From contig PEUB01000123.1 of assembly GCA_002780895.1 (NCBI GenBank), forward strand, positions 1 through 53,649: a stretch of 53,649 nt of DNA, read 5' to 3'. This stretch comes from Nitrospirae bacterium CG02_land_8_20_14_3_00_41_53 (lineage in GTDB: Bacteria > Nitrospirota > Thermodesulfovibrionia > Thermodesulfovibrionales > SM23-35). How positions within the stretch are numbered: the first letter of the stretch is position 1; every line of letters begins with the position of its first letter. Under the pieces are notes generated by a model that was given only the letters and a program-made list of their open reading frames with translations, was not told the origin of the DNA and searched no databases. The position numbers and the translations under genes are program-made. This document shows, piece by piece, positions 453-48,179 of the stretch.

Positions 453-1610
453 TCAATTAATTCTTACAATCCCTGATTTCCCGACTTCTCCTTCAATAGA
501 GCACTTATATTCATGGAATAACCCTATAACCCATGAATTTGTCATCAGATGTTGTGTTATACAGGAAGTGGTGAATGATGATTCTTCTCTGCAGATTGAC
601 AGGTATAAAACTATCTGGTCTGATATATGTGGGTCAAGTGCAGAATTTGTTTCGTAATAATTGATGAATTCCAATGCAGCTTCTTCTCCAACAATCTCAG
701 CCTTTTTCCCTCTTTCACCGAGGGCTGTAAAGCCTGCAATCGAATTTTCTGACTCAGACTTTAAAAAAGTGAACGTCCCCTGTCCAGGAGTCGGAACACT
801 CAATAATTCCATATCAATGTTTGATTGAAGCGGGATTGCTATATTAGATGAATATATCCTTTCCACCAATGCTTTCTTTTGCCTTTCAGCTATTGATAAG
901 GGGAGATTACCTACACCTGAATAACCACTTAATCTCAAAATATTGCCGCGTTCTATAACATTTAAGGGCTTTACATGCTTTGCAGGAAATATTTCGGCCC
1001 TGACCTTTCCTCCGCCCTTTGGATAAAATCCATAAGACTCAATGACAAGCTTTATTTCAATGCCGATCTTCTTAAGAAAGGAAGCAAAAACCCTTTCAAG
1101 GTAATGAAAAGATGGGCTGAAAGGGACATGGGTGCCCCCTTTCAGAGTAATGGTTGATTTTTGTTTAAGTAATCCTCCATCACCCACTTTGTCAGTAATC
1201 CCCCTAAGTCCCCCTTTAGCAAAGGGGGATTGAGGGGGATTTTCATTTTCCATTGAGTCTTTGAAAGATATTTTAACTCCTCTCGAAAATATGAGTGCTG
1301 GAATGATTGTCTGAAGAACCAGTGAGATGGAACCGGCAGTTCCGACGTCAAAGAAAAAGTCTCCGCCTTTTACTGCTCTGGGTAAAAATAAAAGCTCTGT
1401 TGAGCCTGTCTGATCACCCTTTACTTCTGCGTTAGAGAGAAGCTGTGCAGCCCTGACGCATGTAAGATGCTGTGGCATGAGTCCCGGCTTCTTTCGTCCC
1501 TTTCTGATATTAAATATCCTGAATGGCTTTTTAAACAGGCAAGAAAGGCTCAGGGCCGTCCGCAGTATCTGTCCTCCACCCTCTCCGTAACTTCCATCTA
1601 TCTCTATCAT
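453..1610 (-). CDS. rtcA: RNA 3'-terminal phosphate cyclase
   Basis: 385-aa ORF. The N-terminus IEIDGSYGEGGGQILRTALSLS and overall layout are typical of RtcA. It is longer than usual because of an in-frame repeat insert (ENENPPQSPFAKGGLRGI). Confidence 0.85.
   Translation of the reverse strand: MIEIDGSYGEGGGQILRTALSLSCLFKKPFRIFNIRKGRKKPGLMPQHLTCVRAAQLLSNAEVKGDQTGSTELLFLPRAVKGGDFFFDVGTAGSISLVLQTIIPALIFSRGVKISFKDSMENENPPQSPFAKGGLRGITDKVGDGGLLKQKSTITLKGGTHVPFSPSFHYLERVFASFLKKIGIEIKLVIESYGFYPKGGGKVRAEIFPAKHVKPLNVIERGNILRLSGYSGVGNLPLSIAERQKKALVERIYSSNIAIPLQSNIDMELLSVPTPGQGTFTFLKSESENSIAGFTALGERGKKAEIVGEEAALEFINYYETNSALDPHISDQIVLYLSICREESSFTTSCITQHLMTNSWVIGLFHEYKCSIEGEVGKSGIVRIN
1197..1241. repeat. 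C/G-run palindromic element in frame in rtcA (minus-strand gene)
   Basis: aatccccctaagtccccctttagcaaagggggattgagggggatt, translated on the minus strand as NPPQSPFAKGGLRGI. Confidence 0.85.
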
Positions 1611-1783
1611 TGCAAGTTTGCTCCAAATACAAGGCTAAAACTTACCCCACGAAAAATTTATGCAATGTTAAGGTTAACACAATTTATAACCAGATGCCAC
1701 ATCTTATACCGAGAATTGCTGTAAAAAATTATAGAATCTGATAGAAAATACTGCTAAAATGTTATTATAGGACTTATAAAAAG

Positions 1784-1812
1784 TTGAAGAGCGAGGCGAA
1801 GAAGCAATCTGC
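1784..1812 (+). repeat. Solo left-arm relic of the GTCAT...GAGCGAAGCGAAGAATC...GGTGAC repeat family
   Basis: ttgaagagcgaggcgaagaagcaatctgc resembles the left arm of the element at 16183-16246. No matching right arm nearby. Confidence 0.35.
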
Positions 1813-1839
1813 TAAATATCATTTTAATAAGGAGGGGTT

Positions 1840-3195: not shown

Positions 3196-3209
3196 ATACA
3201 GATTTATTG

Positions 3210-4622: not shown

Positions 4623-4676
4623 ATGGTAATTATACAGTTAAAAAGCTAAGAGTGGAAAGGAGGGAATTAAGAGGGG

Positions 4677-7128: not shown

Positions 7129-7133
7129 GACTA

Positions 7134-7901: not shown

Positions 7902-9949
7902 AACGTATAAAAGAAGAGATAGCCGGTGTCGTTTCTGCACTGGCGAGCCTTTATCTTTTTATGAGTCTGATCACACATTATATAAGAGATCCCGTTCTTT
8001 TTTTTCGAGCCACAGAACCTCCTGAACCGGTACGGAATCTCGGCGGAATAACCGGGGCATATATTTCAGGCTGGTTGATTATATTGTTTGGACTTGCTGC
8101 CTTTATTATCCCTTTTTTGATGGTTGCTTTTGGAATTAAACGGCTAATGGGGAAAGAGGGACATAAGATTTACCTGGTTGGAAGTATTTTATTTATTATA
8201 TCGTCTTCTTTATTATTTTCGCTATTATCCTACACCTTTAATATCACCATAATAAAATACCCTGATGGTATTGGCGGCCTTATAGGCAGAGGAATAGCTA
8301 ACCTTGCTAATCAGTTTTTCTACCTTCCCGGGGCCTATATCTTTTCGCTTTCTGTGTTCCTCTCTTCAATCATCTTACTGAGTCCTGTATCTGTTACTGC
8401 GCTTGTACTAAGAAGAAAAAAGCAGAGAGCAGAGGGCAAGGAGCAGAGAGAAGAAACAACTTTAGAAGACCAGGAGATACTTATTAGAGAACATGAACCT
8501 TTACCTGTATCTCAATCCATGCCCAAGATAGAGGTTGTGAGGCCAAGAAAGATAGGGAGCTATGAACTCCCGTCTTTAGAGCTACTGGGTCAACCTGACT
8601 CTGCAGCCTTAAGGCCTTCAAAGGATGAACTTTTGACATATTCATCACTAATCGAGAAAAAACTTGAGGACTTCAGTGTTGAAGGTAGGGTTACACAGGT
8701 ACATCCAGGCCCTGTTGTCACGATGTATGAGTTCGAACCTGCGCCTGGTGTGAAGATAAACAGGGTTGTCTCCCTTTCTGACGATCTTTCTCTTGCACTC
8801 AAGGCACAGAGCGTCAGGGTTTCACCAATTCCAGGAAAGGCCGCAATAGGCATAGAAATTCCTAACAGACAGAGGGAGATAGTATCACTTAGGGAAATCC
8901 TCTCATCGGATGGTTTTAAAAAGAATAATTCAAAGCTTGCCCTCGGTCTCGGTAAGGACATATTCGGAACACCGGTGGTGGCAGATTTAGGGAAGATGCC
9001 TCATCTTCTCGTTGCAGGTGCGACAGGTTCAGGCAAGAGCGTATCGATAAACGCAATGGTTATGAGCATACTGTATAAAGCAACGCCGACTGAGGTAAAG
9101 ATGTTGATGGTAGATCCCAAGCTGCTTGAACTATCAGCATACGAGGAAATACCCCATCTAATCTCACCTGTTATAACAATCCCAAAAGAAGCAGCAGAGG
9201 CGTTGAAAAAGATGGTCATAGAAATGGAGCGGAGGTACAGGGTGCTTGCAGAAAGGGCTGCAAGAAATATTGAAAGTTTTAACATCCAGGCAAGAGACGA
9301 GGATCAACTCCCTTATATTGTTATTGTTATAGACGAACTTGCTGACCTGATGTTTACAGCAGCAAATGATGTTGAAGACTCGATAGCCAGGCTTGCGCAG
9401 ATGGGAAGGGCATCAGGTATTCATCTTATCCTTGCGACACAGAGGCCCTCTGTTGACGTAATTACAGGAATAATAAAGGCAAACTTTCCTGCGAGGATAT
9501 CCTTCCAGGTATCTTCAAAGGTGGACTCAAGGACAATTCTGGATACACATGGTGCGGAACAGCTCCTCGGTAAAGGTGATATGCTTTTAATGTTACCGGG
9601 GGCAAGGACTATACGCGTCCACGGAGCCCTTATTACAGAAGAGGAAATAAATGCTGTTACTGAGTTCATAAAGTCGCAGGGAAGACCTGATTACACAATA
9701 TTAGAAAGCATACAGGATGCTGATGAAATGGAGGCGGATGAAAGGTCAGGGGAAAGAGACGAGATGTATCTGAAGGCGATCGAGTTTGGAGAGATGACTG
9801 GAGAGGTATCCATATCATCCATACAGAGGCGGTTCAAGATAGGATACAACAGGGCAGCGAGGATAATGGAGTTGATGGAAGAAGACGGCATTGTAGGCCC
9901 ACCAAGAGGTGCAGGAAAACCGAGGGAGTTTTTAAGGAGAAGGAGATGA
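7886..9949 (+). CDS. ftsK: DNA translocase FtsK
   Basis: 687 aa. N-terminal TM segments, a charged linker, the motor domain ([32 protein letters not shown]) and a gamma winged-helix C-terminus. Confidence 0.9.
8422..8449 (+). repeat. Heptanucleotide tandem array, gcagaga type, 4 units
   Basis: gcagaga gcagagg gcaagga gcagaga inside the FtsK linker ([11 protein letters not shown]). The unit resembles gcaaaga at 20621. Confidence 0.6.
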
Positions 9950-9963
9950 AAGCAGGATTTGTT

Positions 9964-12374: not shown

Positions 12375-14167
12375 TTTCTCTTAAACATCTTCTTCAGATC
12401 ATCCAGAGAAAAGAAAATCCTTGTTGGTCTGCCGTGGGGGCATTGATCGGGGTGGTCCGCTTGCTCAAGGTCGGAGATAAGGTTTGAAAGTTCTTCCTGA
12501 TTAAGGATTTTTCTGCCTCTTACCGAGCTATGGCATGCAATTCGTGCAGCAAGAGCCTCTTTAAGGGATTTATATGGAGCAATGCCTTTGATAATACATG
12601 ATGCAGCATCTGAGAGAATACCCATGATATCAGCATCCCTTAAAACATCAGGGAGGGAGCGTACAATAACAGTCTCATGTCCAAAATCATCTACTTCCAT
12701 TCCAAAATCCCTGAGTGTCAGGATGTTTTCAAGGATAATCCTATATTCCTTGTGTGACAGTTTAACCTGCTTTGGAAATAATAACTGGTGAGAATTAAGA
12801 TTAATTCCTTTTAGAAACCTTTCATAAAGAATCCTCTCATGAGAAGCGTGGTGATCTATGAGTGTAAGCCCTCCCTTACCTGAAATAGCGATAAAGGTGT
12901 CTCCGAGATAGATAAAAGGCAGATGAGGTTTATAAGCAAATTCAAGGTTTTCTGATATTACAGACCCATGATGGGCAGCCTGTGGGAAGCAAGATATACC
13001 GTAATTAACCGACTGAGTTAATGAATCAGTTACAGACATTTTTGTGAATTGTTTTACATATTCATTTCTCTCTTCTCTTACAGCTTCTCTAATGCTGGAA
13101 TTTACAAAACGATAAATAGATTCTTTATCCTCAAACCTTACTTCGCGCTTTGTAGGGTGGACGTTAAAGTCCACCTTCCCCGGGTCAATGTCGAGAAAGA
13201 GGAAAAAGACAGGATGTTTATCACGAGGGAGAATACCCTCATATGCATTATATACTGCATGAGAAAGGGATTGATCTTTTATCGGCCTCTTATTTATAAA
13301 GATGAACTGATGGGATCTGCTGTTTCTGAAGTTATCGCCTTTTGAGACAAATGCTTTCATCTTTACAACCCCTTCTTGACTCCCGATAATCCCCCCTTGT
13401 CCCCCTTTAGTAAAGGGGGGATGGGGGGATTTGAAAGAGGGGGGTAAGGGGGGATTATTAACCTCCATAAGACTATTAAGAAACTCTTCTCCATAGATCT
13501 GCATAATACGTTCTCTTGGACTTGATGACAATGGGAGATTAATGGTTTCCTGATTATCAGAAGTAAGCCTGAAGCCTATCTCCCAGTGAGAAATGGCCTC
13601 TTTTGTAACTGTATCTATAATGTGAAAAAGCTCCGTGCTGTTTGATCTAAGGAATTTTTTTCTTGCAGGGGTATTAAAAAATAAATCCCTGACCTCAACA
13701 GTCGTACCGATAAAAGGGGAATCTTTTGCCTCTTTTACTTCACCGCCATGTATTTCAACAGATACACCTACCCTCCCTCTCGTCCCCCCCTTGCTAAGGG
13801 GGGGCTGGGGGGATGAATTTTTCAGACCTGTGATGAGTTTAATTTTTGAAATAGATGCAATGGATGGAATGGCCTCACCCCTGAACCCCATTGTCTTTAT
13901 ATTAAAGAGATCATCCTCGGTGACAAGTTTGCTTGTAGCGTGCCCTTTAAATGCAAGCAGGGCATCTTCTTTATCCATGCCTGTGCCATTATCAGATACC
14001 CTGATAAGACGCTTGCCACCATAGAGAATATCGATCCTTATATTAGTACTCTCAGCATCAATTGAATTTTCAATCAGCTCCTTTACAACAGAGGCAGGTC
14101 TTTCAATAACCTCGCCTGCTGCAATCTTATTCCTTAAATCACGAGGAAGGATATTAATCTTTGGCAT
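12371..14167 (-). CDS. mutL: DNA mismatch repair protein MutL
   Basis: 598 aa. IAAGEVIERPASVVKELIENSIDA and the GHKL ATPase N-terminus, plus a MutL C-terminal dimerisation domain. Contains palindromic inserts at two loci. Confidence 0.9.
   Translation of the reverse strand: MPKINILPRDLRNKIAAGEVIERPASVVKELIENSIDAESTNIRIDILYGGKRLIRVSDNGTGMDKEDALLAFKGHATSKLVTEDDLFNIKTMGFRGEAIPSIASISKIKLITGLKNSSPQPPLSKGGTRGRVGVSVEIHGGEVKEAKDSPFIGTTVEVRDLFFNTPARKKFLRSNSTELFHIIDTVTKEAISHWEIGFRLTSDNQETINLPLSSSPRERIMQIYGEEFLNSLMEVNNPPLPPSFKSPHPPFTKGGQGGIIGSQEGVVKMKAFVSKGDNFRNSRSHQFIFINKRPIKDQSLSHAVYNAYEGILPRDKHPVFFLFLDIDPGKVDFNVHPTKREVRFEDKESIYRFVNSSIREAVREERNEYVKQFTKMSVTDSLTQSVNYGISCFPQAAHHGSVISENLEFAYKPHLPFIYLGDTFIAISGKGGLTLIDHHASHERILYERFLKGINLNSHQLLFPKQVKLSHKEYRIILENILTLRDFGMEVDDFGHETVIVRSLPDVLRDADIMGILSDAASCIIKGIAPYKSLKEALAARIACHSSVRGRKILNQEELSNLISDLEQADHPDQCPHGRPTRIFFSLDDLKKMFKRK
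13388..13456. repeat. C/G-run palindromic element plus an extra right half-copy, in frame in mutL (minus-strand gene)
   Basis: aatccccccttgtccccctttagtaaaggggggatggggggatt + tgaaagaggggggtaaggggggatt, translated as NNPPLPPSFKSPHPPFTKGGQGGII. Confidence 0.85.
13771..13814. repeat. C/G-run palindromic element (cttgctaag centre) in frame in mutL
   Basis: ccctccctctcgtcccccccttgctaaggggggctggggggat, translated as SPQPPLSKGGTRGRVG. Confidence 0.75.
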
Positions 14168-20641: not shown

Positions 20642-20750
20642 AAAATACGGTTAAGGCTATGGTTACGATGCTCGTATCGGTGACGTGAAAAAGTCGAATG
20701 ACGTGGCCGTAAGACGAAACGGGCTTCGTTACCCTGACCGTTTGACATGT

Positions 20751-20792
20751 TCTATGCTCTATGCTCTATGCTTTATACTATGTGCTATATGC
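20751..20792 (+). repeat. Heptanucleotide array tctatgc type, 6 units
   Basis: tctatgc x3, then tttatac tatgtgc tatatgc. Encodes the hydrophobic core of the LptE signal peptide. Its reverse-complement unit gcataga is one mismatch from gcaaaga at 20621. Confidence 0.8.
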
Positions 20793-21257
20793 TTGGCCGG
20801 TTGTGGTTATACAATCCATGGCAGGGCGGCCTTGCCTTTTGATTCAATACAGATAGCAAAGATCGAAAATGTGACTCTCGAACCAAAACTCCAGGACAGG
20901 CTTTATAAAGCCCTTACAGAGGAGTTTTTGAAGCAAGGGATTGCTGTTTATCCTGACGCAGGTTATAAACTCACTGGCACGGTTTATCAGTTTGAATTAC
21001 GTGTACTTTCTGAAAAGGCAGACATAGCAGCAGAATATGAGGTAATTATTAAAGGAGATTTTAGGCTGGTCGAACCTTCAGGAAATATAAAAGAGTTCAA
21101 AAACATAGGCTCTCCATTCATTGTATTTTTTCAAAGCTCTGGCATGCTGGAAGACGTGCTTGCAACTAAAGAACTTGCGTCAGAAAAGGCTATTAAAGAC
21201 ATGGCTATGGAGATAGTCGCTATACTTATTTACCCCGTTAGAAAAGGGGATTTTTAA
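20754..21257 (+). CDS. lptE: LPS-assembly lipoprotein LptE
   Basis: Lipobox LAGC followed by GYTIHGR, and conserved leuS-lptE-holA order. The start is uncertain (ATG 20754 chosen; the track ORF starts at 20685). Confidence 0.65.
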   Translation: MLYALCFILCAICLAGCGYTIHGRAALPFDSIQIAKIENVTLEPKLQDRLYKALTEEFLKQGIAVYPDAGYKLTGTVYQFELRVLSEKADIAAEYEVIIKGDFRLVEPSGNIKEFKNIGSPFIVFFQSSGMLEDVLATKELASEKAIKDMAMEIVAILIYPVRKGDF

Positions 21258-34897: not shown

Positions 34898-36480
34898 GAT
34901 TTAGAGAACTTCTTCATGGTTGCGAGTACATTAATCTCCCCTCACCCCCCTTTAATTCCCCCCTTAGTAAGGGGGGATATAGAGGGGTTAAAGGAGGGCA
35001 GGGGTGGTGGGACCTAGATATCTCAGGCGTAGCTTATGATTCCCGGAAGGTAAAAGAAGGTTACCTGTTTGTGGCAATTACAGGCGAGAGGTATGACGGA
35101 CACGATTTTATCAAAGATGCAATTAAAAGAGGTGCAGTTGCGATAGTTGGGGAGAAAGATTCTCCGATTCCTTTGTATATCCGTGTCAAAGACAGCAGAA
35201 AGGCACTTGCCTGTATAGCTAATAATTATTATGGAATGCCATCAGAGGCTCTCACACTGATAGGTATAACCGGTACAAATGGAAAGACAACAACAACTTA
35301 TATCCTAAAGTCTATTCTCGAGTCATGGGGAAAAGAGGTTGGCCTGATCGGCACAATTCAATACATGATAAAAGACAGGGTCTATCCTGCACTGCATACA
35401 ACACCTGAATCCCTTGAATTTCAAGGGCTATTAAAGGATATGCTTTTATCAGGATGCACATATGTTATCTCAGAGGTCTCTTCTCATGCACTTGCGCTGT
35501 ACCGAGTGGATAGGGCTATTTTTAATGTTGCATTGTTTACAAATTTTACAAGAGACCATCTGGACTTTCATAAAACTATGGAGGATTATTTCAGGGTAAA
35601 GAAGAGATTATTTATAGAGCTTCTTGATAAGGATGGTATCGCTATAATAAATCTTGATGATCCATATGGAAAGAGACTTATCTCGTCACTTATAGCTTTT
35701 AACCCGTCACAGGGTATATTGACATATGGGATAGAGAGCGGAGCAGATATCATGGCAGGTGATATTGATAACTCATCCGGGGGATTGAATTTCAAGATAT
35801 CATTCCGCGGCAGGAGTTATGATATCTCATCTCAGCTAATAGGCCTGCCGAATGTATATAATATAATGTCTGCAGTTGCTGTATCGATCTCGCTGGAGGT
35901 TCCATGGCAGGTAATCCTGGAAGGCTTAGTAAAGACAGGTAATATTACAGGCAGGTTCGAAAAGGTTGAAATTGGTCAGGAGTTTCTATGCATTATTGAT
36001 TATGCCCATACCGAAGATGCGCTTGAAAGGCTGATATCCACTGCAAGAGAATTTATCTTAACCCCCCATCCCCCCCTTACTAAGGGGGGGCATAGGGGGG
36101 GTCGCGTTATCACAGTCTTCGGTTGCGGGGGAGACAGAGACCGTGGCAAAAGGCCGGCGATGGGCGCAGTAGCAACAAGGCTTAGTGATTTTGTGATTGT
36201 AACCTCTGACAACCCGAGATCTGAAGAACCAACCGATATAATTAAAGATATCGAAAGCGGAGCAGTAAGGAAAAACTATCTCATAGAGCCTGACAGGGGA
36301 GAGGCTATCAGGAAAGCGGTTGGTATGGCAGGTGATGGTGATGTTATTCTTATTGCAGGCAAAGGGCATGAGGATTACCAGGACATTAAAGGTGTCAGGT
36401 ATAGATTTAATGACAGGGATGTTATTGAAGAGGCAATAAAATACAGGATGCAAGATACAAGATGCGGGATGCAAGATTGA
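34894..36480 (+). CDS. murE: UDP-N-acetylmuramoyl-L-alanyl-D-glutamate--2,6-diaminopimelate ligase
   Basis: GITGTNGKTTTTY, FGCGGDRDRGKRP and DNPRSE motifs. Two palindromic inserts and a heptamer-encoded C-terminus. Confidence 0.9.
   Translation: MRFRELLHGCEYINLPSPPFNSPLSKGGYRGVKGGQGWWDLDISGVAYDSRKVKEGYLFVAITGERYDGHDFIKDAIKRGAVAIVGEKDSPIPLYIRVKDSRKALACIANNYYGMPSEALTLIGITGTNGKTTTTYILKSILESWGKEVGLIGTIQYMIKDRVYPALHTTPESLEFQGLLKDMLLSGCTYVISEVSSHALALYRVDRAIFNVALFTNFTRDHLDFHKTMEDYFRVKKRLFIELLDKDGIAIINLDDPYGKRLISSLIAFNPSQGILTYGIESGADIMAGDIDNSSGGLNFKISFRGRSYDISSQLIGLPNVYNIMSAVAVSISLEVPWQVILEGLVKTGNITGRFEKVEIGQEFLCIIDYAHTEDALERLISTAREFILTPHPPLTKGGHRGGRVITVFGCGGDRDRGKRPAMGAVATRLSDFVIVTSDNPRSEEPTDIIKDIESGAVRKNYLIEPDRGEAIRKAVGMAGDGDVILIAGKGHEDYQDIKGVRYRFNDRDVIEEAIKYRMQDTRCGMQD
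34933..35010. repeat. Composite (apparently nested) C/G-run palindromic element in frame in murE
   Basis: aatctcccctcacccccctttaa[ttccccccttagtaaggggggatatagagggg]ttaaaggagggcaggggtggtgg, translated as NLPSPPFNSPLSKGGYRGVKGGQGWW. Confidence 0.7.
36059..36102. repeat. C/G-run palindromic element in frame in murE
   Basis: taaccccccatcccccccttactaagggggggcatagggggggt, translated as LTPHPPLTKGGHRGG, just before FGCGGDRD. Confidence 0.8.
36440..36477 (+). repeat. Heptanucleotide array gatgcaa type, about 5 units
   Basis: aatacag gatgcaa gatacaa gatgcgg gatgcaa gat. Encodes the MurE C-terminus (RMQDTRCGMQD) up to the stop. Confidence 0.7.
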
Positions 36481-38974: not shown

Positions 38975-38976
38975 CA

Positions 38977-40161
38977 ATGAGGAATTCCAAATTTCAAATT
39001 TCAAATTTCAAAATTAATACAAGGATTCTTTTATGTCTTTTGGTTTTTTCACTTTTCACTTTTCACTTTTCACTTTCAACTTCTCTCGCTGATGAGATTC
39101 ATTCCAAAGCTGCAGTTGTAATGGGCGCCTCAACGGGAAAGATTCTTTATGCAAAAAACCCGAGTCTCAGACTTCCTCCAGCAAGCACAACAAAGTTAAT
39201 GACAGCAATAGTAGCTATAGAAAAAGCAGACCCTTCGCATATTGTAACGGTAAGCAGAAATGCCTCTCATGTTTCTCCTCATAAGGCAGGTTTCAGAGAA
39301 GGGGATAAGGTTACTGTTAAGACTCTTCTTTATGCTGCTTTAGTGGGATCTGCAAATGATGCGGCTGTTGCCCTCGCAGAAGCAGTGGCGGGATCTGAGG
39401 AGAGGTTTGTTTATCTAATGAACAGGAAGGCGATTGCTATGGGGTTAAAGGATACTAAATTCATAAACCCCCATGGGCTTCCTGGCCCTGGCCAGTATAT
39501 CACTGCTTATGATTTATCAAAAATAATGAGTTATGCGCTTAGATATCCCAAACTGAAAGAGATTATCGGAACCCGTGTGGCAGAGGTTTCGACCGAAAAT
39601 GGGAATGCGATATTTCTTAAAAACACGAACAGGCTTTTATGGTCTGACGAAGATCTTGTTGGAGGAAAGACAGGATATACACGTAAGGCAAGGCATTGTT
39701 TTGTATGTGCTGCTGAACGTGAAAAGGATAAGGTTATAGTTGCGCTCCTCGGTAGCCCGAGCAGGGATGAACTCTGGAGAGAGGCGGAGGTACTGGTACA
39801 AAAAGGATTCCGGGCGATAGCGAACAATGAGGAACCAGTCATCTATTTTGCGAAGGCAGACTATGATAAACTTTATATAAAAAAGGCATCCTATAAGAAA
39901 AGTTCAAAATTCAAAATTCAAAATTCAAAATTAAAGACTGATAAAAGGATAGCAAAAGAGACAGTAAAACATAAAAAGGCAAAGATGATTACAAAGAAGA
40001 AGGGTAAGGCAAAACTATTTGCAAAGAAAACAATGAAGTATAAAAAGGCAAAGATGATTGCAAAGAAAAAATGGAAGACAAAGACTTTTGCAAAAAGCAA
40101 AAACAATAAGGGAAAGAATTACAGGATTGCAGAGAAAGTTGAAGATAGAATTAAAGGATAA
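38977..40161 (+). CDS. Serine-type D-Ala-D-Ala carboxypeptidase (peptidase S11, PBP5/6-like) with lysine-rich C-terminal tail
   Basis: Signal peptide, then ASTTK (SxxK), SANDA (SxN) and KTGYT (KTG). ATG 38977 lies 6 nt after GAGG (GTG 38971 is also possible). The last 90 or so residues are K-rich and repeat-derived. Confidence 0.8.
   Translation: MRNSKFQISNFKINTRILLCLLVFSLFTFHFSLSTSLADEIHSKAAVVMGASTGKILYAKNPSLRLPPASTTKLMTAIVAIEKADPSHIVTVSRNASHVSPHKAGFREGDKVTVKTLLYAALVGSANDAAVALAEAVAGSEERFVYLMNRKAIAMGLKDTKFINPHGLPGPGQYITAYDLSKIMSYALRYPKLKEIIGTRVAEVSTENGNAIFLKNTNRLLWSDEDLVGGKTGYTRKARHCFVCAAEREKDKVIVALLGSPSRDELWREAEVLVQKGFRAIANNEEPVIYFAKADYDKLYIKKASYKKSSKFKIQNSKLKTDKRIAKETVKHKKAKMITKKKGKAKLFAKKTMKYKKAKMIAKKKWKTKTFAKSKNNKGKNYRIAEKVEDRIKG
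38987..39015 (+). repeat. Heptanucleotide array tcaaatt, 4 units
   Basis: ccaaatt tcaaatt tcaaatt tcaaaatt. Encodes NSKFQISNFKI at the carboxypeptidase N-terminus. Confidence 0.8.
39049..39076 (+). repeat. Heptanucleotide array tcacttt, 4 units (complement of aaaagtg family)
   Basis: tcacttt x4. Encodes the signal-peptide core FSLFTFHFSL. Confidence 0.85.
39904..39932 (+). repeat. Heptanucleotide array tcaaaat, 4 units
   Basis: tcaaaat x4. Encodes [11 protein letters not shown], the same peptide type as in LeuS. Confidence 0.85.
39971..40108 (+). repeat. Tandem direct duplication, 69-nt period (2 copies)
   Basis: ataaaaaggcaaagatgatt[a/g]caaagaa... recurs at 39971 and 40040. Encodes KHKKAKMITKKKGKAKLFAKKT / KYKKAKMIAKKKWKTKTFAKSK. 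Confidence 0.75.
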
Positions 40162-41782
40162 AAACGTAACAGTTGTGGGCCTTGCCAGGAGCGGCATAGG
40201 CGCGGCAAATCTGCTCACTGAACTCGGAGCAGACGTGACGGTAACAGATATAAAGAAAGAGGATGAACTTAAGGATTTTATACCGAAACTTGGACCTTCA
40301 GTCAAACTTGTCCTTGGAACACATCACGAGGATATATTCTTATCATCTGATATGTTGGTCATTAGTCCTGGTGTTCCGCTTACAATCACAGCTATTTCAA
40401 AGGCAAAAGCAAAAGGAATACCTATAATCGGTGAGCTCGAACTCGCATATCAGATAGCTACTTATGGGTCAGATAATCCTCCCATTCCGCCAATAATCCC
40501 CCCTCACCCCCCTTTAGAAAAGGGGGGAAGGGGGGATTTGATAAAGGGATGCATAGGGGGGGTTCTTGCTGTTACAGGCACAAATGGTAAGTCAACAACA
40601 ACAGCCTTACTTGACTTCATGATGAAAAGAGGTGGTTTCGAAACAATTCTCGGAGGGAATATAGGGAATGCACTGACAGAGGAAATACTTAAAATAGTCA
40701 AAAGTCAGAAGTCAGAAGTCAGACCCCCCACCTGCCCCCCCTTGCTAAGGGGGGGATTTGAGGGGGGGTGTTCTTTGAACTCCGGTCTAAACTCGTCACT
40801 TGATTTTATTGTTGCTGAGGTATCAAGCTTTCAACTCGAGTCAATAAAGGACTTCAGGCCAAAGGTGGCTTCGATACTCAATATTACACCCGACCACCTC
40901 GACAGGTACCACTCAATCAAAGAATACAGCGATGCAAAGGCAAGGATATTTGAAAATCAAAAAGAGGACGATTTTCTGGTCATTAATTGGGATGACCCTG
41001 AGACAATGAAAGTTAAAAGTGAAAAGTTAAAAGTGAAAAGTGAAAAACCAAAAATCTTTTACTTCAGTCGTAGAAAAGAGGTCAAGGGGATTTACTTTAA
41101 AAATGGTATGGTTTATTGCAATCTTCCTCCAATGACGGGGACAGTCCTAATCCCCCCTCACCCCCCCTTTGTTAAAGGGGGGATGGGGGGATTATTGGCC
41201 GGTAAATCTGGGACAGTCCCCTCAGTCCCCCTAATAAGGGCTGATGAGATAAAGATAAAAGGTGTCCATAACATGGAGAATGCCATGGCTGCTTCAGCCA
41301 TGGCTCTCCTTGCAGACTGCCCGATAAAGGCAGTTATAGATTCCCTGAGGGAATTTTCTGGTCTTGAGCACAGGCTTGAATTTGTCAGAGAGCTAAATGG
41401 TGTCAGGTATTTTAACGATTCAAAGGGGACAAATGTCGGCGCAGTCATCAAATCGCTTGAAGGCTTTAAGGGGCCGATTATCCTGATTGCAGGAGGCAGG
41501 GATAAGGCAGGAGATTTTTCTCTATTGAGGCATTTAGTAAGAGAAAGGGTAAAGGCTATTGTATTGGTAGGTGAGGCAAGTGAAAAAATAAAAGGGGCAC
41601 TCGGAGACCTCGCAGAGACAGTTATGGCTAAGGATTTGAGAGAGGCTGTAAACATATCATGTAGTATGGCAGTAAAAGACGATGTTGTTTTGCTTTCACC
41701 TGCATGTGCCAGTTTTGACATGTTTGCTAATTTTGAGGACAGAGGCAGACAGTTTAAAAAGATAGTGATGGAGATGGAATAA
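40139..41782 (+). CDS. murD: UDP-N-acetylmuramoylalanine--D-glutamate ligase
   Basis: VVGLARSG, VTGTNGKSTT, NDSKGTN and SPACASFD motifs. Start set at TTG 40139 (MKIELKDKNVTVVGLARSG). The track ORF begins at ATG 40058, inside the upstream gene's tail. Carries 3 palindromic and 2 heptamer inserts. Confidence 0.9.
   Translation: MKIELKDKNVTVVGLARSGIGAANLLTELGADVTVTDIKKEDELKDFIPKLGPSVKLVLGTHHEDIFLSSDMLVISPGVPLTITAISKAKAKGIPIIGELELAYQIATYGSDNPPIPPIIPPHPPLEKGGRGDLIKGCIGGVLAVTGTNGKSTTTALLDFMMKRGGFETILGGNIGNALTEEILKIVKSQKSEVRPPTCPPLLRGGFEGGCSLNSGLNSSLDFIVAEVSSFQLESIKDFRPKVASILNITPDHLDRYHSIKEYSDAKARIFENQKEDDFLVINWDDPETMKVKSEKLKVKSEKPKIFYFSRRKEVKGIYFKNGMVYCNLPPMTGTVLIPPHPPFVKGGMGGLLAGKSGTVPSVPLIRADEIKIKGVHNMENAMAASAMALLADCPIKAVIDSLREFSGLEHRLEFVRELNGVRYFNDSKGTNVGAVIKSLEGFKGPIILIAGGRDKAGDFSLLRHLVRERVKAIVLVGEASEKIKGALGDLAETVMAKDLREAVNISCSMAVKDDVVLLSPACASFDMFANFEDRGRQFKKIVMEME
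40475..40562. repeat. C/G-run palindromic element with extra partial arms, in frame in murD
   Basis: Core aatccccctcacccccctttagaaaaggggggaaggggggattt, flanked by aatcctcccattccgcc and ataaagggatgcataggggggg. Translated as DNPPIPPIIPPHPPLEKGGRGDLIKGCIGG, directly before the P-loop. Confidence 0.8.
40697..40723 (+). repeat. Heptanucleotide array gtcagaa, 4 units
   Basis: gtcaaaa gtcagaa gtcagaa gtcaga (KSQKSEVR), abutting the palindromic element at 40724. Confidence 0.85.
40724..40770. repeat. C/G-run palindromic element (cttgctaag centre) in frame in murD
   Basis: ccccccacctgccccccccttgctaagggggggatttgagggggggtg, translated as PPTCPPLLRGGFEGG. Confidence 0.8.
41008..41049 (+). repeat. Heptanucleotide array aaaagtg/aaaagtt, 6 units
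   Basis: gaaagtt aaaagtg aaaagtt aaaagtg aaaagtg aaaaacc (KVKSEKLKVKSEKPK) in murD. Confidence 0.85.
41148..41235. repeat. C/G-run palindromic element plus a downstream half-arm, in frame in murD, bracketed by a 10-nt direct repeat
   Basis: taatcccccctcaccccccctttgttaaaggggggatggggggatta (IPPHPPFVKGGMGGL). gggacagtcc occurs at 41138-41147 and 41210-41219. The half-arm tcccctcagtccccctaat follows. Confidence 0.8.
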
Positions 41783-42975
41783 TGGGTAAATATGACAGGT
41801 GGCTGCTCCTTGTTGCAATTCTATTAATAGGTTTTGGCGCACTCATGATATACAGCACCACATCTGTTATTACTCCTGTACTTGCAAAGAGAGGGGTTAC
41901 CGAATTTTATTATTTCAAGAGACACGTATTTACAATCCTCATAGGATTCAGCTTTATGTTCCTTGCCTATAGACTGAAAACTTCCACTATAAAGAAGATG
42001 GCTATCCCACTCCTCATTTTTTCTTTTGTGCTGTTGATACTTGTTTTTTTGCCCAATATTGGAGTCTCTGCAGGAGGTGCAAGGAGATGGATAAAACTCT
42101 GGCCTTCAACCTTCCAGCCATCAGAGCTTGTAAAGCTTTCCATGGTAATATTCCTTGCGAGATATATCTCAATGCCGGGATATAGAACAGATAGTTTTAT
42201 ATCCTTTATAAAACCTATCTTCATAGTGATAATATTCCAGATAGCTATTCTTAAACAACCTGACTTCGGGGCAGCTATGAGTCTTGCATTCCTCACATTC
42301 GCAATGCTCTTTCTTTCCGGTATAAGGCTCAGATACATTGCATCACTTTTAGTGTTTGTCATGCCGGTAATATTTAAGCTTATTACAGAGCCGTATCGCC
42401 TCAAAAGGCTAACATCATTTCTTGACCCATGGAAAGATGCTCAGGGCAGCGGCTTCCAGCTTGTGCAGTCGTTTATAGCACTCGGCAGTGGAGGCTTAAC
42501 AGGGGTAGGTCTCGGATGTTCCAAACAGAAATTGTCTTATCTTCCTGAATCCCATACGGATTTTATCTTTTCTATTATTGGTGAGGAGTTTGGCTTTATA
42601 GGCGTGTTAGTTGTGATAACACTTTTTTTGCTTTTGTTCATTAAGGGTATATCTATTGCAAACAGGGCAAAAGACGGGTTTGTATATTACCTGGCAATAG
42701 GACTTTCACTGATGATCTCTCTCCAGGCGCTTATCAACTTTGCAGTTGCTACAGGCTTGGTGCCTACAAAGGGATTACCCTTACCATTTGTCAGTTACGG
42801 AGGGTCAGCTCTCCTTGTGAATTTGGCTGCTATAGGGATACTCCTTAACATATCAAGAGGTGAACATAATCCCCCCTCGCCCCCCTTTAGTAAAGGGGGG
42901 ATGGGGGGATTATCAGATGAAATGCATGTAAGGAGAAGGGCCAGAAGGAATATGGGAATTCATATTTCACAATGA
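41782..42975 (+). CDS. ftsW: Peptidoglycan glycosyltransferase FtsW (SEDS family)
   Basis: 397 aa polytopic. QPSELVK, GSGFQLVQSFIALGSGGLTGVGLG, PESHTDFIFS and PFVSYGGS motifs. Palindromic insert in the C-terminal tail. Confidence 0.9.
   Translation: MGKYDRWLLLVAILLIGFGALMIYSTTSVITPVLAKRGVTEFYYFKRHVFTILIGFSFMFLAYRLKTSTIKKMAIPLLIFSFVLLILVFLPNIGVSAGGARRWIKLWPSTFQPSELVKLSMVIFLARYISMPGYRTDSFISFIKPIFIVIIFQIAILKQPDFGAAMSLAFLTFAMLFLSGIRLRYIASLLVFVMPVIFKLITEPYRLKRLTSFLDPWKDAQGSGFQLVQSFIALGSGGLTGVGLGCSKQKLSYLPESHTDFIFSIIGEEFGFIGVLVVITLFLLLFIKGISIANRAKDGFVYYLAIGLSLMISLQALINFAVATGLVPTKGLPLPFVSYGGSALLVNLAAIGILLNISRGEHNPPSPPFSKGGMGGLSDEMHVRRRARRNMGIHISQ
42866..42913. repeat. C/G-run palindromic element in frame in the ftsW tail
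   Basis: ataatcccccctcgcccccctttagtaaaggggggatggggggattat, translated as HNPPSPPFSKGGMGGLS. Confidence 0.85.
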
Positions 42976-44096: not shown

Positions 44097-44101
44097 AGAT
44101 A

Positions 44102-45493
44102 ATGTTTGAAAGATACAGGGTAGTACATTTTGTCGGGATAGGCGGTATAGGGATGTCAGGTATTGCAGAGGTGCTTTACAACCTTAACTACAAGGTGACA
44201 GGGTCTGATTTAAAAGATTCGGAGGCAACGGTAAGATTGAGGAAGTTAGGCATAAAGGTCTATATAGGTCATAAAGCAGAAAATATAGACGATGCCCATG
44301 TATTGGTCGTATCCTCAGCGGTTTCAGGAGATAACATAGAGGTAGCTGAGGCAAAAAGAAGGGCTATACCTGTAATACCACGTGCTGAGATGCTTGCAGA
44401 GCTGGCAAGACTGAAATACGGGATACTCGTTGCAGGGGCACATGGCAAGACAACAACGACATCTTTAGTATCGACTATACTTGCCCATGGCAGTCTTGAT
44501 CCCACTGTTGTTATAGGCGGAAGGCTAAAGGCAATAGGCAGTAACGCAAGACTTGGTCAGGGAGAATTCCTTGTGGCAGAGGCTGATGAAAGTGACGGTT
44601 CGTTTCTTAAGCTTTCCCCAACGATTGCCGTTGTCACAAACATTGACAGGGAGCATATGGATTTTTTCAAGACAATGGATTCATTGAAAAAGGCATTTCT
44701 TTCCTTTATAAATAAGGTTCCATTTTATGGCGTATCAATAATTTGTATTGAGAACGAGCACCTGCGTGAACTTTTGCCATCTATTCACAGAAGATACATC
44801 ACATATGGGCTTACCAATGAAGCAGAACTTTATGCAGAAAATATTAGAAAAGGTTTTATGTCGGTAAGCTTTGATGTAATCCATAAGGGCAAAAATTTTG
44901 GGAGTTTCGACCTTCCTGCGCCTGGGATACATAATGTCCTTAACAGCTTGGCTGCTATCGGCGTAGCATTAATTTTAAAACTAAATGTATCAATAATTAG
45001 AGATGCGCTGAAAGGGTTTAGTGGTATACAGAGAAGGTTTGAGTTTAAAGGTGAGGTGAACGGAATAAAGGTATTCGATGATTATGCCCATCATCCCTCA
45101 GAGATAAAGGCAACACTGAAGGCAGCAAAGGAAGGGCTCATTATTAGTCAGAAGTCAGGAAGATTATTTGTCATATTCCAGCCTCATAGATATACAAGGA
45201 CAAGGGATCTAATGGATGAGTTTTCATCTTCGTTTAATGATGCAGATTCACTCATACTTTTGGATATTTATTCTGCCGGAGAAAAACCAATGAAAGGCGT
45301 AAACTCAGCAACCTTGCTTGATAGGATTAAAAAAACAGGGCATAGCAGAGTTTTATATGCTGAAGATAGGGAAGATGCGATAAGGCATTTAATCTCTAAT
45401 ATGACAAGGGGTGATATCCTTCTTACTCTCGGGGCAGGCAATGTATGGAAGATAGGCGATGAGATACTAAATAAGCTAAAAGAGAAAAGTTAA
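44102..45493 (+). CDS. murC: UDP-N-acetylmuramate--L-alanine ligase
   Basis: HFVGIGGIGMSGIAEVL, GAHGKTTTTS, DDYAHHPSE and FQPHRYTRT motifs. Confidence 0.9.
   Translation: MFERYRVVHFVGIGGIGMSGIAEVLYNLNYKVTGSDLKDSEATVRLRKLGIKVYIGHKAENIDDAHVLVVSSAVSGDNIEVAEAKRRAIPVIPRAEMLAELARLKYGILVAGAHGKTTTTSLVSTILAHGSLDPTVVIGGRLKAIGSNARLGQGEFLVAEADESDGSFLKLSPTIAVVTNIDREHMDFFKTMDSLKKAFLSFINKVPFYGVSIICIENEHLRELLPSIHRRYITYGLTNEAELYAENIRKGFMSVSFDVIHKGKNFGSFDLPAPGIHNVLNSLAAIGVALILKLNVSIIRDALKGFSGIQRRFEFKGEVNGIKVFDDYAHHPSEIKATLKAAKEGLIISQKSGRLFVIFQPHRYTRTRDLMDEFSSSFNDADSLILLDIYSAGEKPMKGVNSATLLDRIKKTGHSRVLYAEDREDAIRHLISNMTRGDILLTLGAGNVWKIGDEILNKLKEKS
45147..45163 (+). repeat. Short gtcagaa heptamer run, about 2 units
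   Basis: gtcagaa gtcagga aga in murC (SQKSGR). Same unit as 40697. Confidence 0.4.
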
Positions 45494-45519
45494 AAGTGGA
45501 AACTCAAAATTTAAAAGAT
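45478..45519 (+). repeat. Heptanucleotide array aaaagtg type, 6 degenerate units across the murC-murB junction
   Basis: aaaagag aaaagtt aaaagtg gaaactc aaaattt aaaagat. Contains the murC TAA and the murB GTG. Confidence 0.65.
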
Positions 45520-46431
45520 ATATTTTCTGAGGGCCTCTTTGAAGATGAAGTGAGATTTATGGAGCCAATGAAAAACCATACATCATTGAAGATCGGAGGA
45601 CCTGCGGATATCTTTGCCATGCCTCAAGACCTTTCTTCACTAAAAAACATGCATATTAACCTGAAAAGAAATAAGATACCTTTTTCCCCCATTGGAGGAG
45701 GAACAAATATCTTAGTGAGAGATGGTGGCATAGAGGGCGCTGTTATATCTTTGAGGTCTTTCAGAAGGACGGGGGTCTTGAGTAAAGATAATGAGTACAT
45801 GTATTTATTTGCTGAGGCCGGGACTTTACTCCAGAGGATTGTGAATTTCTCGAAGGAAAATGGTTATTCAGGTATAGAGGGCCTTGCAGGCATACCAGGA
45901 ACTGTTGGTGGAGCAATCTTTGGAAATGCAGGTGCATTCGGCTATGAGATGAAGGATGTTCTTGTTTCAGTTGAGGTAATGGATATTGAAGGTAGGATTA
46001 AAATGTTTAAGGCAGAGGAGATTAACTTTGGACATAGAAGTTCAAGCATTTCACGAAATGAATTAATTCTTGCTGCGGAAATAAAGCTCAAGAAAGATGA
46101 AAAGGAAGAGGTTTCAGCTAAGGTTGACGATTTCCTGAGGAAAAAGAGAGAAAAACAGCCTCTCTGGGAACCATCTGCCGGATGTGTATTTAAAAATCCT
46201 GCAGGGTTATCTGCAGGTAAGCTTATAGATGAAGCAGGATGCAAAGGTATGAGAATCGGCGATGTCGAAGTGAGCAGCATACATGCGAATTTCTTTATAA
46301 ATAAAGGAAAGGCAAATGCCTCTGATTTTATTAGGCTTATGGAGGAAGTTGCTCGTAGAGTGAAGGAAAGATTTGGAGTGGTACTTGAGCCGGAGATAAA
46401 GATAGTCGGTAGAGACAATGTTAACGGATAA
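45496..46431 (+). CDS. murB: UDP-N-acetylenolpyruvoylglucosamine reductase
   Basis: [19 protein letters not shown] and GCVFKNP motifs. GTG start inside a heptamer array. Later in-frame ATGs at 45559 and 45568 are alternatives. Confidence 0.85.
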
Positions 46432-47380
46432 ACGTATAGGTGTTTTAATGGGTGGGACTTCAGCTGAAAGAGAAATATCTCTCAGGAGTGGAACCGCAAT
46501 TTATAATGCATTGAAGGTGATAGGTTATAAGGCGTTTGCTATAGATGTCGGCCCTGATATTTGTAATGTACTGAATAGGGAAGGGATAGAGTTAGCATTT
46601 CTTGTACTTCATGGGGGATATGGAGAAAACGGTTCTATACAGGGCATGCTTGAGGTTTTAGGTATCCCTTATACAGGTTCTGGGGTGCTTGCATCTGCCC
46701 TTGCAATGGACAAAGAGGCGTCAAAGAAGATTTTTCTTTATCACAATATCCCTATACCACCATTTGTTGTAGTAACAAGTAACGAGTTATTAATCCCCCC
46801 CCTCCCCCCTTTAGTAAAGGGGGGTAAGGGGGGATTTGACTCATCACTAATTGACTTTCCGTTGCCCTGGGTCGTCAAGCCTACAGCCGAAGGTTCAAGC
46901 ATAGGAATAAGTATTGTGAGGGATAAAATGAACTTTAGACAAGCATTAGAGGCGGCCTATTCCCATGGTTCAAGGGTAATTGTTGAAAAATATATAATGG
47001 GGAAAGAGGTGCACATAGGGATACTCAATGGCAGGGTATTAGGCGGTGTTGAGGTAAGGCCATCTCTCGAGTTTTATAATTATGAGGCCAAATATACCGC
47101 AGGTCGGACAGAATATATACTTCCTCCAGAAATAAACAATAAGGCTTATGAAAGGGCAAAGGAGGCTGCTATTTCTGCTCATACTGCCCTCGGGTGTAAA
47201 GGCGCTACGAGGGTTGATCTAAGGGTTGATACAGAAGGCAATCCATATGTACTCGAGGTCAATACTATTCCGGGTATGACCGAAATGAGCTTGCTGCCAA
47301 AAATAGCAAGCCTTGCAGGGTTTGATTTTCCTGCCTTGATAGAAGAGATTATCAGAGGTGTTATTGATGAAGGCCAATAA
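46418..47380 (+). CDS. ddl: D-alanine--D-alanine ligase
   Basis: [40 protein letters not shown] and EVNTIPGMT motifs. One palindromic insert. Confidence 0.9.
46791..46837. repeat. C/G-run palindromic element in frame in ddl
   Basis: taatccccccccctcccccctttagtaaaggggggtaaggggggattt, translated as [17 protein letters not shown]. Confidence 0.85.
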
Positions 47381-48179
47381 ATTAATGAGGTCGGGTAAAA
47401 AGATAAATATCTTTGGTATATTCCGCAATGTAGCTGTTTTCATCGTCATTTTTGCAACCGCAATATGTATGTATATTTACTTGCGTCCAATAAGATCAGT
47501 ATTGCCTATTAAACACGTTGTATTTACCGGGAATAAACATCTAACAGACGATGAACTCATGGTACTTGCCGGTGTTCATGTTAATGAAAATCCCCCCTCA
47601 CCCCCCTTTACTAAAGGGGGGAAGGGGGGATTTTTAGGTGATAGTCTGATTACGATTTCAAACAAAAAGGTGAGTCAAAGGTTACTCAAATCTCCATGGA
47701 TTAGATCCGTAAGTGTAAGGAAACAATTCCTTGATACACTGTCAATGGTAATAGATGAGGCGGTGCCGTTTGCGCTTCTTGATATGAATAGCCATCTTTT
47801 TTTAATAGATGAGAAGGGTAAACTCCTTGAAGAACTTAAAGGTGATTCAATACCGTTCCTTCCAGTTATCACAGGGGATCCGTTCAGAGAAAGTGAGGGG
47901 TTTTCAGAGGCCATTAACCTTGCGAGATTGATGAATGAGAGGGGGTTTTCGCCAGGAAGAGACCACATTGATATATTTGCACGAAAGCCACATGAGCTCA
48001 CTGTAACAATCGATGGAACTGTTGTAAAAATGGGTTCTGGGATGTTCGAAGAAAAACTTAAAAGGCTGATTGAATTAGAAGACGAGATAAAAAATAGGGG
48101 CATTCCTGTTGATTATATAGATTTAAGATTTGCGGGCAAGGCGATCGTAAAACCTATAACCAACAAGGTGGTTAAGTGA
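47367..48179 (+). CDS. ftsQ: Cell division protein FtsQ
   Basis: TM helix then POTRA-like [14 protein letters not shown], in the canonical position. The start is uncertain (GTG 47358, ATG 47367 with GAGG 8 nt upstream, or ATG 47385). Confidence 0.75.
47587..47634. repeat. C/G-run palindromic element in frame in ftsQ
   Basis: aaaatcccccctcacccccctttactaaaggggggaaggggggatttt, translated as [17 protein letters not shown]. Confidence 0.85.

Follow-up and report, generated by a model that had tools for sequence, protein, structure and literature searches.

A small C-run/G-run hairpin repeat inserted in frame in housekeeping genes of an uncultured Nitrospirota bacterium

To our knowledge, in-frame selfish palindromes are textbook material only for Rickettsia. 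A stretch of 53,649 nt from Nitrospirae bacterium CG02_land_8_20_14_3_00_41_53 (GenBank contig PEUB01000123.1, positions 1-53,649; the whole of it is called the window here) raises the question of how short C-run/G-run palindromes came to lie, in frame, within its housekeeping genes, and of whether they are kept there for a purpose. An earlier examination of the letters and open reading frames (ORFs) alone, referred to here as the sequence-only reading, had listed 12 such loci, assigned them to one element family and likened them to the Rickettsia palindromic elements (RPEs). The copies are now confirmed as lineage-specific insertions in hypervariable loops or tails. The C-run/G-run hairpin repeat that they represent is apparently an undescribed family, analogous to RPEs and to the BoxC motifs, and its separation from RPEs is by description.

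A regular-expression scan of the window found palindromes at, or within a few bases of, all 12 of the loci that had been claimed (Table 1). Every one of them sits in the reading frame of an identified gene: rtcA, mutL (two copies), leuS, murE (two), murD (three), ftsW, ddl and ftsQ. The hosts RtcA, MutL, LeuS, MurE, MurD, FtsW, Ddl and FtsQ were named by NCBIfam, whose matches to several of these proteins are split or stretched where the inserts sit. The pattern C6N3C6TTTN3AAAG6N2G6, with up to three mismatches allowed, gave 14 strand-hits in the window versus none in 100 shuffles that preserved dinucleotide content. Read in the host frame, all 12 loci encode PPxPP[FL]xKGGxGG-like peptides, for genes on both strands, as had been predicted of a repeat that reads as the same type of peptide on either strand.

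The assignment to a single family did not survive, as the 12 loci comprise three related families: A at eight loci, C at three and B at one. The canonical family A is WAAT-C6-N3-C6-TTT-N3-AAA-G6-N2-G6-ATTW, about 44-46 nt in length, and occupies rtcA, mutL-b, the murE N-terminus (as a mosaic), murD sites 1 and 3, ftsW, ddl and ftsQ. Family C, C7-AT-C7-TTACTAA-G7-CATA-G7, is found at mutL-a, murE-b and murD site 2. The single family B locus, in leuS, fits the BoxC/TM_ECO pattern CCCTCNCCC-N3-6-GGGNGAGGG-N3-GGGNGAGGG with at most one substitution per block, and families B and C follow the same C-run/G-run logic as family A. A flank profile was taken over 99 family A copies, drawn from the window and from genomes elsewhere. 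The AAT and ATT adjoining the runs (positions -3 to -1 and +1 to +3) are kept in 93-96 of the 99, position +/-4 is W and there is no conservation farther out. Variation is confined to the apical loop of 3 nt and to the two spacers, which usually measure 3 nt and 2 nt; the stem sequence is thus conserved, with loop and bulge free to change. The palindrome had been called near-perfect, with two open frames per strand, which requires correction: the unequal spacers make it slightly asymmetric, and typically three of the six frames of a copy are open, not four. Run lengths also vary among copies, from C5 to C8 and from G5 to G10.

The strong hairpins expected from the sequence are borne out by RNA folding, which gave -30 to -39 kcal/mol for the copies and z-scores of -2.9 to -5.2 for family A; the GC content of the window is 38-45%. 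A palindrome continuing past the conserved ends, the sign of a hairpin-templated origin, was sought in the flanks and appeared as a weak excess at +/-5 in Deltaproteobacteria alone, with nothing farther. An Rfam scan of the window returned one tRNA and no further family; no copy was matched at the gathering threshold, and the matches at E<=1 were to miRNA hairpins at chance level. No published description was retrieved by exact DNA or peptide strings in a full-text literature search, the scope of which left out much subscription literature. Both results are consistent with the earlier remark that this is not a described family.

That the encoded residues are insertions follows from several comparisons, which uphold the sequence-only reading on this point. 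Against MurD structures in the PDB, the MurD of the window has three extra segments, each carrying one of its three copies; E. coli DdlB is 8 residues shorter at the ddl site, and the rtcA copy falls in a segment of about 34 amino acids that is missing from the PDB RtcA 4o89. The three MurD sites are hypervariable among 120 Nitrospirota orthologues (61-86% identity, compared together with the protein of the window) and show presence/absence polymorphism. Some are empty, some hold palindrome-encoded peptides and some hold heptamer arrays read as SQKSEVR or SKFKVQS. Mapping of the inserts on structures had been proposed earlier as a check. An AlphaFold2 model of MurD built on 47 orthologues has a confident Mur ligase core, and its stretches of coil without secondary structure and with a predicted local distance difference test score (pLDDT) below 50, at residues 129-156, 211-236 and 350-377, are exactly the three inserts.

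The DNA of the dcw (division and cell wall) cluster was also compared with that of two relatives at about 90% nucleotide identity (L120 and L122) and a third with 82% MurD identity (L123). The ftsQ site is cleanly empty in L120, as a 54-nt gap, and filled in L122 and L123. At murD site 1, just upstream of the P-loop strand, L120 and L122 have an intact family C copy without the inner family A copy, and the alignment gap is 45 nt. These two, of 45 nt at murD site 1 and 54 nt at ftsQ, are the cleanest new insertions. Surviving copies are confined to open frames and, within the protein, to surface loops or tails; and since one and the same site may be filled by unrelated repeats (heptamers or families A, B or C), it is the site that is permissive and not the element that is required.

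Present-day turnover is directly visible. An independent assembly (L143) differs from the window by two substitutions in 21.5 kb (99.99% identity), and its only internal indel is the lack of a 72-nt in-frame block at murD site 3; the insert is therefore dispensable, and its gain or loss is very recent. The block opens with GGGACAGTCC, and the same 10-mer repeats directly after it at 41210-41219, so that direct repeats bound the indel. The simplest reading is a slipped-strand deletion between these repeats across a strong hairpin. As a separate observation, the family A copy of this site sits within a segment present in many MurD orthologues, TGTV-PILPPLAGKS-GTVP (41138-41220), which itself resembles a small insert with internal GGGACAGTCC direct repeats.

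Occupied sites attract further copies, by nesting at loops, by mosaic formation and by replacement of one family by another, as seen at murD site 1, mutL, murE and ddl. The palindrome that had been placed at murD 40475 is there, but as an outer, decayed copy around the one at 40494. The family A copy of mutL and the older half copy adjoining it are a nested or 1.5-copy structure, and across the family C copy of the same gene the match of MutL residues 2-237 to the hidden Markov model (HMM) exceeds the matching stretch of the profile by about 16 residues. LeuS variants from the same protein cluster of at least 90% identity (866 versus 840 amino acids; P0140 and P0147) bear a further 26-amino-acid insert within the family B copy, which is another nested event. 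The murE N-terminal site, a mosaic in the window, holds a plain family B copy in L120 and L122, and the second murE site carries the same family C copy in L122 and family B with heptamer repeats in L120. At ddl, family A of the window is replaced by B in L120 and by C in L122 and L123. The ftsW copy rewrites the tail just upstream of the murG start, where relatives have ISAALIDKEII (net +27 nt in the window). Because of nesting, or of other repeats alongside, the inserted segments often exceed 15 amino acids. Decay is seen as well, in the outer copy at murD site 1 and in uncompensated stem-breaking substitutions of the ftsQ copies of L122 and L123; the latter argue against selection for the hairpin.

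Table 1. Palindromic copies and adjoining repeats in the window, with positions counted from its first nucleotide
Locus	Feature	Position	Gene strand	Peptide	Remarks
rtcA	Family A copy (C5 variant)	1197-1242	-	NPPQSPFAKGGLRGI	nhmmer E=9e-9
mutL-b	Family A copy	13388-13432	-	SPHPPFTKGGQGG	E=2e-16
mutL-b	Older half copy adjoining the family A copy	13430-13456	-		E=0.012
mutL-a	Family C copy, N-terminal half of mutL	13771-13815	-	SPQPPLSKGGTRG	
leuS	Family B (BoxC/TM_ECO-like) palindrome	19171-19220			Pattern-fitting part 19184-19218
murE N-terminus	Mosaic copy	34933-34990			Family A left arm, small C6-TTAGTAA-G6 hairpin, family B right arm
murE-b	Family C copy	36059-36104		TPHPPLTKGGHRGG	
murD site 1	Nested copies	40476-40566			Family A copy (40494-40539) in the loop of a decayed family C copy
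murD site 2	Heptamer array and copy	40696-40771			AGTCAGA heptamer x4 (40696-40723), then family C copy (40721-40771)
murD site 3	72-nt block	41138-41209			Holds family A copy (41148-41194)
ftsW C-terminal tail	Family A copy	42867-42912		NPPSPPFSKGGMGGL	
ddl	Family A copy	46791-46837			
ftsQ	54-nt insertion	47585-47638			Contains family A copy 47588-47633

The element also occurs outside this organism. A scan of 185,579 species genomes matched at least 119 loci, and the phyla were compared by features that the search pattern does not force, namely the AAT..ATT ends and a CTTT-N2-3-AAAG centre. Among the matches listed, the ends are present in 35 of 45 copies from Nitrospirae, 22 of 26 from Deltaproteobacteria/Thermodesulfobacteriota, seven of 15 from Nitrospinota, three of four from Methylomirabilota, three of six from Planctomycetota and two of four from Chloroflexota. 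To judge from these sequences, a nearly identical element is present in at least six bacterial phyla, and one sequence-defined hairpin in so many of them implies horizontal spread or a conserved recognising activity. The unforced features of family A recur at loci of 60-67% GC, and the pattern is also found on 16 viral contigs. An HMM made from 24 canonical copies outside the window matched the window copies at E=1e-15 to 1e-17. The cyanobacterial matches are a distinct subfamily, with AT..AT ends and no TTT/AAA.

Placement relative to genes differs between lineages. With at least 60 open codons required on each side, and again among the matches listed, 27 of 46 Nitrospirae copies lie in open frames versus 61% of random positions (p=0.76), and ten of 15 Nitrospinota copies versus 54%. 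For Deltaproteobacteria the figures are four of 26 versus 60% (p=8e-6), and for cyanobacteria two of 15 versus 56% (p=0.002). Family A avoids genes in Deltaproteobacteria, where some copies sit between convergent genes, and does not avoid them in Nitrospirota or Nitrospinota; the anomaly is a lack of the usual gene avoidance, not an enrichment in genes. In other genomes the hosts are, among others, MetRS (two copies), AlaRS, RecJ, P-type ATPases, CobN and radical-SAM proteins; a metagenome-assembled genome (MAG) of Methylomirabilis supplies one of the hosts and a Dehalococcoidia MAG another. A further MAG, L109, labelled 'uncultured delta proteobacterium', contains a CobN-like ORF with an in-frame family A copy and SQKSEVR heptamers, as in Nitrospirota; its taxonomic label may be unreliable.

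The same holds close to the window. Four more copies lie on the source contig outside it, two in a cobQ-like gene, one near the start of lptB and one intergenic (hpf/rapZ), so that about 16 copies occur in some 72 kb and 15 of the 16 are intragenic, which equals the random expectation because coding density is 89-94%. The earlier statement that every copy of the window lies inside a coding sequence is accordingly true but unremarkable, and the window itself holds no intergenic copy, as had been said, with one just outside it and three more intragenic. The intergenic copy, of family A (L141 3972-4010, beyond the window end), has a third G-run, G6-TAA-G6-TAA-G5, a C-G-G triple-block layout. The concentration in the dcw cluster, which had been thought unusual, is real in that eight of the 12 copies lie in a 12.7-kb stretch of it, but its probability of about 0.002 is post hoc. 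Genes of the dsrC and dsrMKJOP type adjoin the window, and the organism is a Thermodesulfovibrio-like uncultured member of the Nitrospirota. Many public assemblies contain its contig, and more than 130 metagenomes the strain.

On balance, we think that these palindromes are probably copies of a selfish, non-autonomous hairpin repeat that is mobilised in trans and tolerated in genes as a flexible Pro/Gly linker. Spread would proceed by copy-insertion of a single-stranded hairpin intermediate. An enzyme recognising the conserved stem would act in trans, an HUH/RAYT-like (RAYT, REP-associated tyrosine transposase; REP, repetitive extragenic palindrome) or IS200-like activity being the leading candidate, and A+T-rich or hairpin-loop DNA would be the preferred target. 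Homopolymer slippage together with selection would leave in-frame survivors only, and the inserts would be translated and nearly neutral rather than functional. The repeat would persist in protein loops because CCC/GGG codons give a Pro/Gly linker on both strands. A sharply bounded unit conserved across phyla favours recognition by a protein; nesting at loops, replacement and mosaics favour structure-targeted insertion and/or template switching between copies; and the variable homopolymer runs and several length classes suggest that the surviving copies are probably shaped by slippage that restores the frame, together with selection.

Signatures of mobility were searched for at the copies themselves. 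The best direct-repeat lengths at 142 copies equal those of shuffled flank pairs, so no target-site duplication (TSD) was detected by a test that a 2-bp AT duplication within the conserved ends would escape. Orientation is unbiased, at 27 versus 24 relative to the gene strand and 37 versus 34 relative to GC skew. A fixed unit length was not apparent either, as intragenic copies fall in several length classes and do not differ significantly in length class from intergenic ones. Some of the evidence weighs against mobilisation in trans. No mobilising enzyme was seen: Pfam annotation of the roughly 72 kb of source contig revealed no transposase or RAYT gene, and no isolated half-elements bracketing a gene, as a parent insertion sequence (IS) would have, were found in about 1 Mb of loci, where the apparent half-elements all proved to be degenerate full copies. 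A strand bias with respect to replication, usual in transposition of the IS200/IS605 type, was not seen here, with replication direction proxied by local GC skew alone. The cleanest insertions, of 45 and 54 nt, are to be set against a conserved span that is mostly 44 nt, and the copies fall in several length classes; an insert length that is not demonstrably constant is as compatible with recombinational or imprecise insertion as it is with transposition. That the inserts are translated is deduced from intact frames only, and some MAG taxonomic labels may be wrong, though the GC content of the loci differs widely.

A bolder form of the mobilised-repeat account is offered tentatively and with some doubt. 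The 44-46-nt unit would be among the smallest mobile DNAs and would have crossed phyla (Nitrospirota, Nitrospinota, Deltaproteobacteria, Methylomirabilota, Planctomycetota and Chloroflexota, with viral contigs too). It would be moved by a trans-acting, hairpin-loop-targeting activity, its C6/G6 runs would make it coding-compatible on both strands and, by freely colonising essential genes in some lineages, it would be a main source of novel protein loops.

The copies could also have spread and interconverted with no dedicated enzyme, through template switching during replication or repair, or through gene conversion; we regard this as rather unlikely, though worth serious attention. A strand would stall at a hairpin or C/G run, copy another element via C6/G6 microhomology and return, and quasi-palindrome correction would keep the arms complementary. 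The mosaic at the murE N-terminus, with its left arm from A, core from C and right arm from B, is readily understood in this way, as are the three families at one ddl site and two at one murE site among genomes about 90% identical, the nesting at hairpin loops, and inserts that differ in length (45, 54 and net 27 nt) and fall, within genes, in several length classes. The lack of TSDs, of orientation bias and of a nearby transposase would be expected, the 72-nt indel between direct repeats is typical of slippage, and BoxC-type motifs are tied to local instability in E. coli (PMC4666352). Switching of this kind, however, suits turnover at filled sites better than the colonisation of virgin ones such as ftsQ. 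It leaves unexplained the A/T ends and exact C6/TTT/AAA/G6 layout that are shared across phyla, even in genomes of 60-67% GC, and the abrupt stop of conservation at +/-4.

Selection for a function is improbable in our judgement. The copies would then serve as mRNA-hairpin attenuators, RNase barriers or pause sites that tune expression of the dcw operon, or as Pro/Gly linkers or pauses dependent on elongation factor P (EF-P) that aid domain folding. Dependence on EF-P and mRNA-hairpin effects are plausible in themselves, and function would account for the very stable hairpins, the crowding in the dcw cluster, the U-run 3' of the ftsQ copy, the filling of several sites in many related genomes and the conservation of sequence across phyla. 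Against this stand presence/absence polymorphism even within one strain, the uncompensated stem-breaking changes in orthologous copies and the decayed outer copy at murD site 1, and the filling of the same site by unrelated repeats (heptamers and families A, B and C). Orientation and gene placement are those of random positions, and the host proteins are functionally unrelated. A consensus terminator scan flagged no copy; on this result, and with the window copies lying inside ORFs, an intrinsic bidirectional terminator was rejected. Three other candidates were set aside on reasoning: DNA uptake sequences, as they arise by substitution and not insertion and would not be expected to be shared across phyla; inteins or translational bypass, as the copies are short, in frame and open; and CRISPR repeats, as there is no array.

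Error of assembly or sequencing at homopolymers, or ancestral protein segments mistaken for insertions, has hardly any claim left: the data are metagenome assemblies and homopolymers are error-prone, but assemblies made independently (JGI, ENA, NCBI and Logan) show the same copies at identical sites, so that an assembly artefact, which the sequence-only reading had named as a risk, is rejected; the exact insert-bearing RtcA is indexed in 163 collection blocks, with the sequence on 78 contigs from five sources; none of the 12 copies breaks the reading frame; and the segments are missing from distant homologues and many close orthologues. The case for error at homopolymers is illustrated by L123, a related NCBI MAG in which ddl (8557-9530) is called as two ORFs of 167 and 172 amino acids, split by a 1-nt G-run difference in a family C palindrome. 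The split reflects either a sequencing error in the homopolymer or a genuine frameshift, and it shows the C/G runs to be a liability in essential genes.

Other repeats share the neighbourhood. Heptanucleotide tandem arrays (period 7, 3-7 copies), mostly intragenic, lie at 20060-20092, 20747-20793, 38983-39012, 39046-39076, 39899-39932, 40696-40723, 41009-41046 and 45473-45517, among others. The unit is read in three frames in turn to give peptides such as SQKSEVR; the arrays often flank palindromes, and related genomes differ in their copy number, the step being usually 21 or 24 nt. Other small in-frame palindromic inserts of 24-27 nt occur at 48189-48212, at the N-terminus of ftsA (GGTTCGACGGCG...CGTCGAAG), and in L122 at window position ~38999 (CCTTCGACCCGAGCTCAGGCCGAAGG); being present in one genome and absent from its relatives, they constitute a further repeat family. 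The ftsA/ftsZ gap holds a 29-nt perfect hairpin, AAATGGAGCACTATTAGAATAGTGCTCCAT, followed by an A-run (49427-49455), which is absent from the same spot in L120 and L122. Downstream of an ADP-ribosylglycohydrolase gene, at 52623-52660, there is an intergenic hairpin, AAATCCCCTCTTGAGAGGGGTGTAGGGGTGTG, with an extra G-block in a C-G-G layout like that of a triplex motif, which the scan flags as terminator-like. A gene for a bacterial family X DNA polymerase (23518-25233; HHH_8, DNA_pol_B_thumb and PHP domains) is also present, with no evidence linking it to the repeats.

The consequences reach beyond this locus. Among the genes struck, at the rate of random placement, are essential ones of cell-wall synthesis, cell division, mismatch repair and tRNA charging; rtcA, also struck, is probably non-essential. 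The inserts put hypermutable homopolymers into essential genes, inflate and fragment HMM matches and can split ORFs in MAG annotations. They also provide natural 'permissive-site' maps for Mur ligases, Ddl, FtsQ and FtsW, MutL and aminoacyl-tRNA synthetases. Three aspects had not been anticipated by the sequence-only reading: the identity of sequence across phyla; the lineage-specific tolerance in genes, with avoidance in Deltaproteobacteria and none in Nitrospirota or Nitrospinota; and the direct evidence of ongoing turnover, from a strain pair whose only internal indel is the 72-nt block and from nested and mosaic copies. Nor had it noticed that copies nest in and replace one another, or that the leuS copy is akin to triplex motifs of the BoxC type.

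Several known systems resemble this repeat in part. Bacterial MITEs (miniature transposable elements with inverted repeats), such as Correia/NEMIS, Nezha, RUP and the QMITEs of Coxiella, are usually 70-300 bp long, with TSDs and a recognisable parent IS. They share with the C6/G6 element a non-autonomous nature, inverted-repeat ends, RNA hairpins and the occasional addition of peptides to proteins. Terminal inverted repeats are present here in that the whole unit is one inverted repeat, but the unit has only 44-46 nt, no TSD, and neither a parent IS nor isolated half-sites in the roughly 1 Mb of loci. The GC clusters and 'byp' elements of yeast mitochondria are very small GC-rich hairpin inserts that A+T-rich genomes carry in their coding regions; the ribosome skips byps, whereas the Nitrospirota copies are in frame and open, and sequences and hosts differ. 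In cyanobacteria, small dispersed repeats (SDRs) and STRR heptamers have reportedly been described by Elhai et al. in 2008. SDRs nest in one another and heptamer tandem repeats co-occur with them, as here, while the cyanobacterial matches of our scan belong to the distinct subfamily noted above.

REP and REPIN elements are mobilised by RAYT transposases (PMC3733652; PMC3116915). They too are GC-rich imperfect palindromes (20-40 nt in REPs) of high copy number without TSDs; a minority of REPs lie inside genes, REPs are insertion targets for other elements, and mobilisation by a single-strand HUH enzyme is also the model favoured for the Nitrospirota element. REPs, however, carry a GTAG or CGTC tag at one end, whereas the 99 profiled copies end in WAAT/ATTW. 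They are also mainly extragenic and usually species-specific in sequence; the C6/G6 element shows an extragenic bias in Deltaproteobacteria (4/26 intragenic) and not in Nitrospirae (27/46), and no RAYT gene was seen near copies on the source contig.

The BoxC/PIT/TM_ECO intrastrand-triplex motifs of E. coli and other bacteria are short dispersed repeats made of a C-block, a loop, a G-block, N3 and a G-block, often palindromic, found in several phyla, with a mobility mechanism that is not known and an association with local genome instability (Holder et al., 2015; PMC4666352). Family A is built of blocks in this arrangement too, but the BoxC pattern itself is fitted by family B only, in leuS and in the copies of L120 and L122. 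The BoxC blocks are CCCTCNCCC and GGGNGAGGG, whereas families A and C have pure C/G runs and family A has conserved AAT/TTT/AAA/ATT junctions. The E. coli copies were analysed against neighbouring ORFs and in intergenic regions (PMC4666352), whereas those here are in frame inside essential genes. A BLAST search of the family B copy against E. coli genomes returned no match with the low-complexity filter on, probably because of that filter. The C6/G6/G6 arrangement with its 2-3-nt turn would in principle permit a triplex.

A further parallel is that of the RPEs, which are said to have been described by Ogata et al. in 2000. As summarised in PMC3733652, these are palindromic dispersed repeats lying in frame in many unrelated functional housekeeping genes, with insert peptides thought to lie on protein surfaces, no known transposase and intergenic copies as well. 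RPEs are about 100-150 bp long, A+T-rich and restricted to Rickettsia and its relatives, whereas the Nitrospirota element has 44-46 nt, C6/G6 runs, a PPxPP..GGxGG peptide and a distribution over several phyla. The comparison drawn by the sequence-only reading is thus apt as an analogy and not as membership: an RPE-like phenomenon is now seen, with a much smaller element, in Nitrospirota that are free-living and abundant in the environment.

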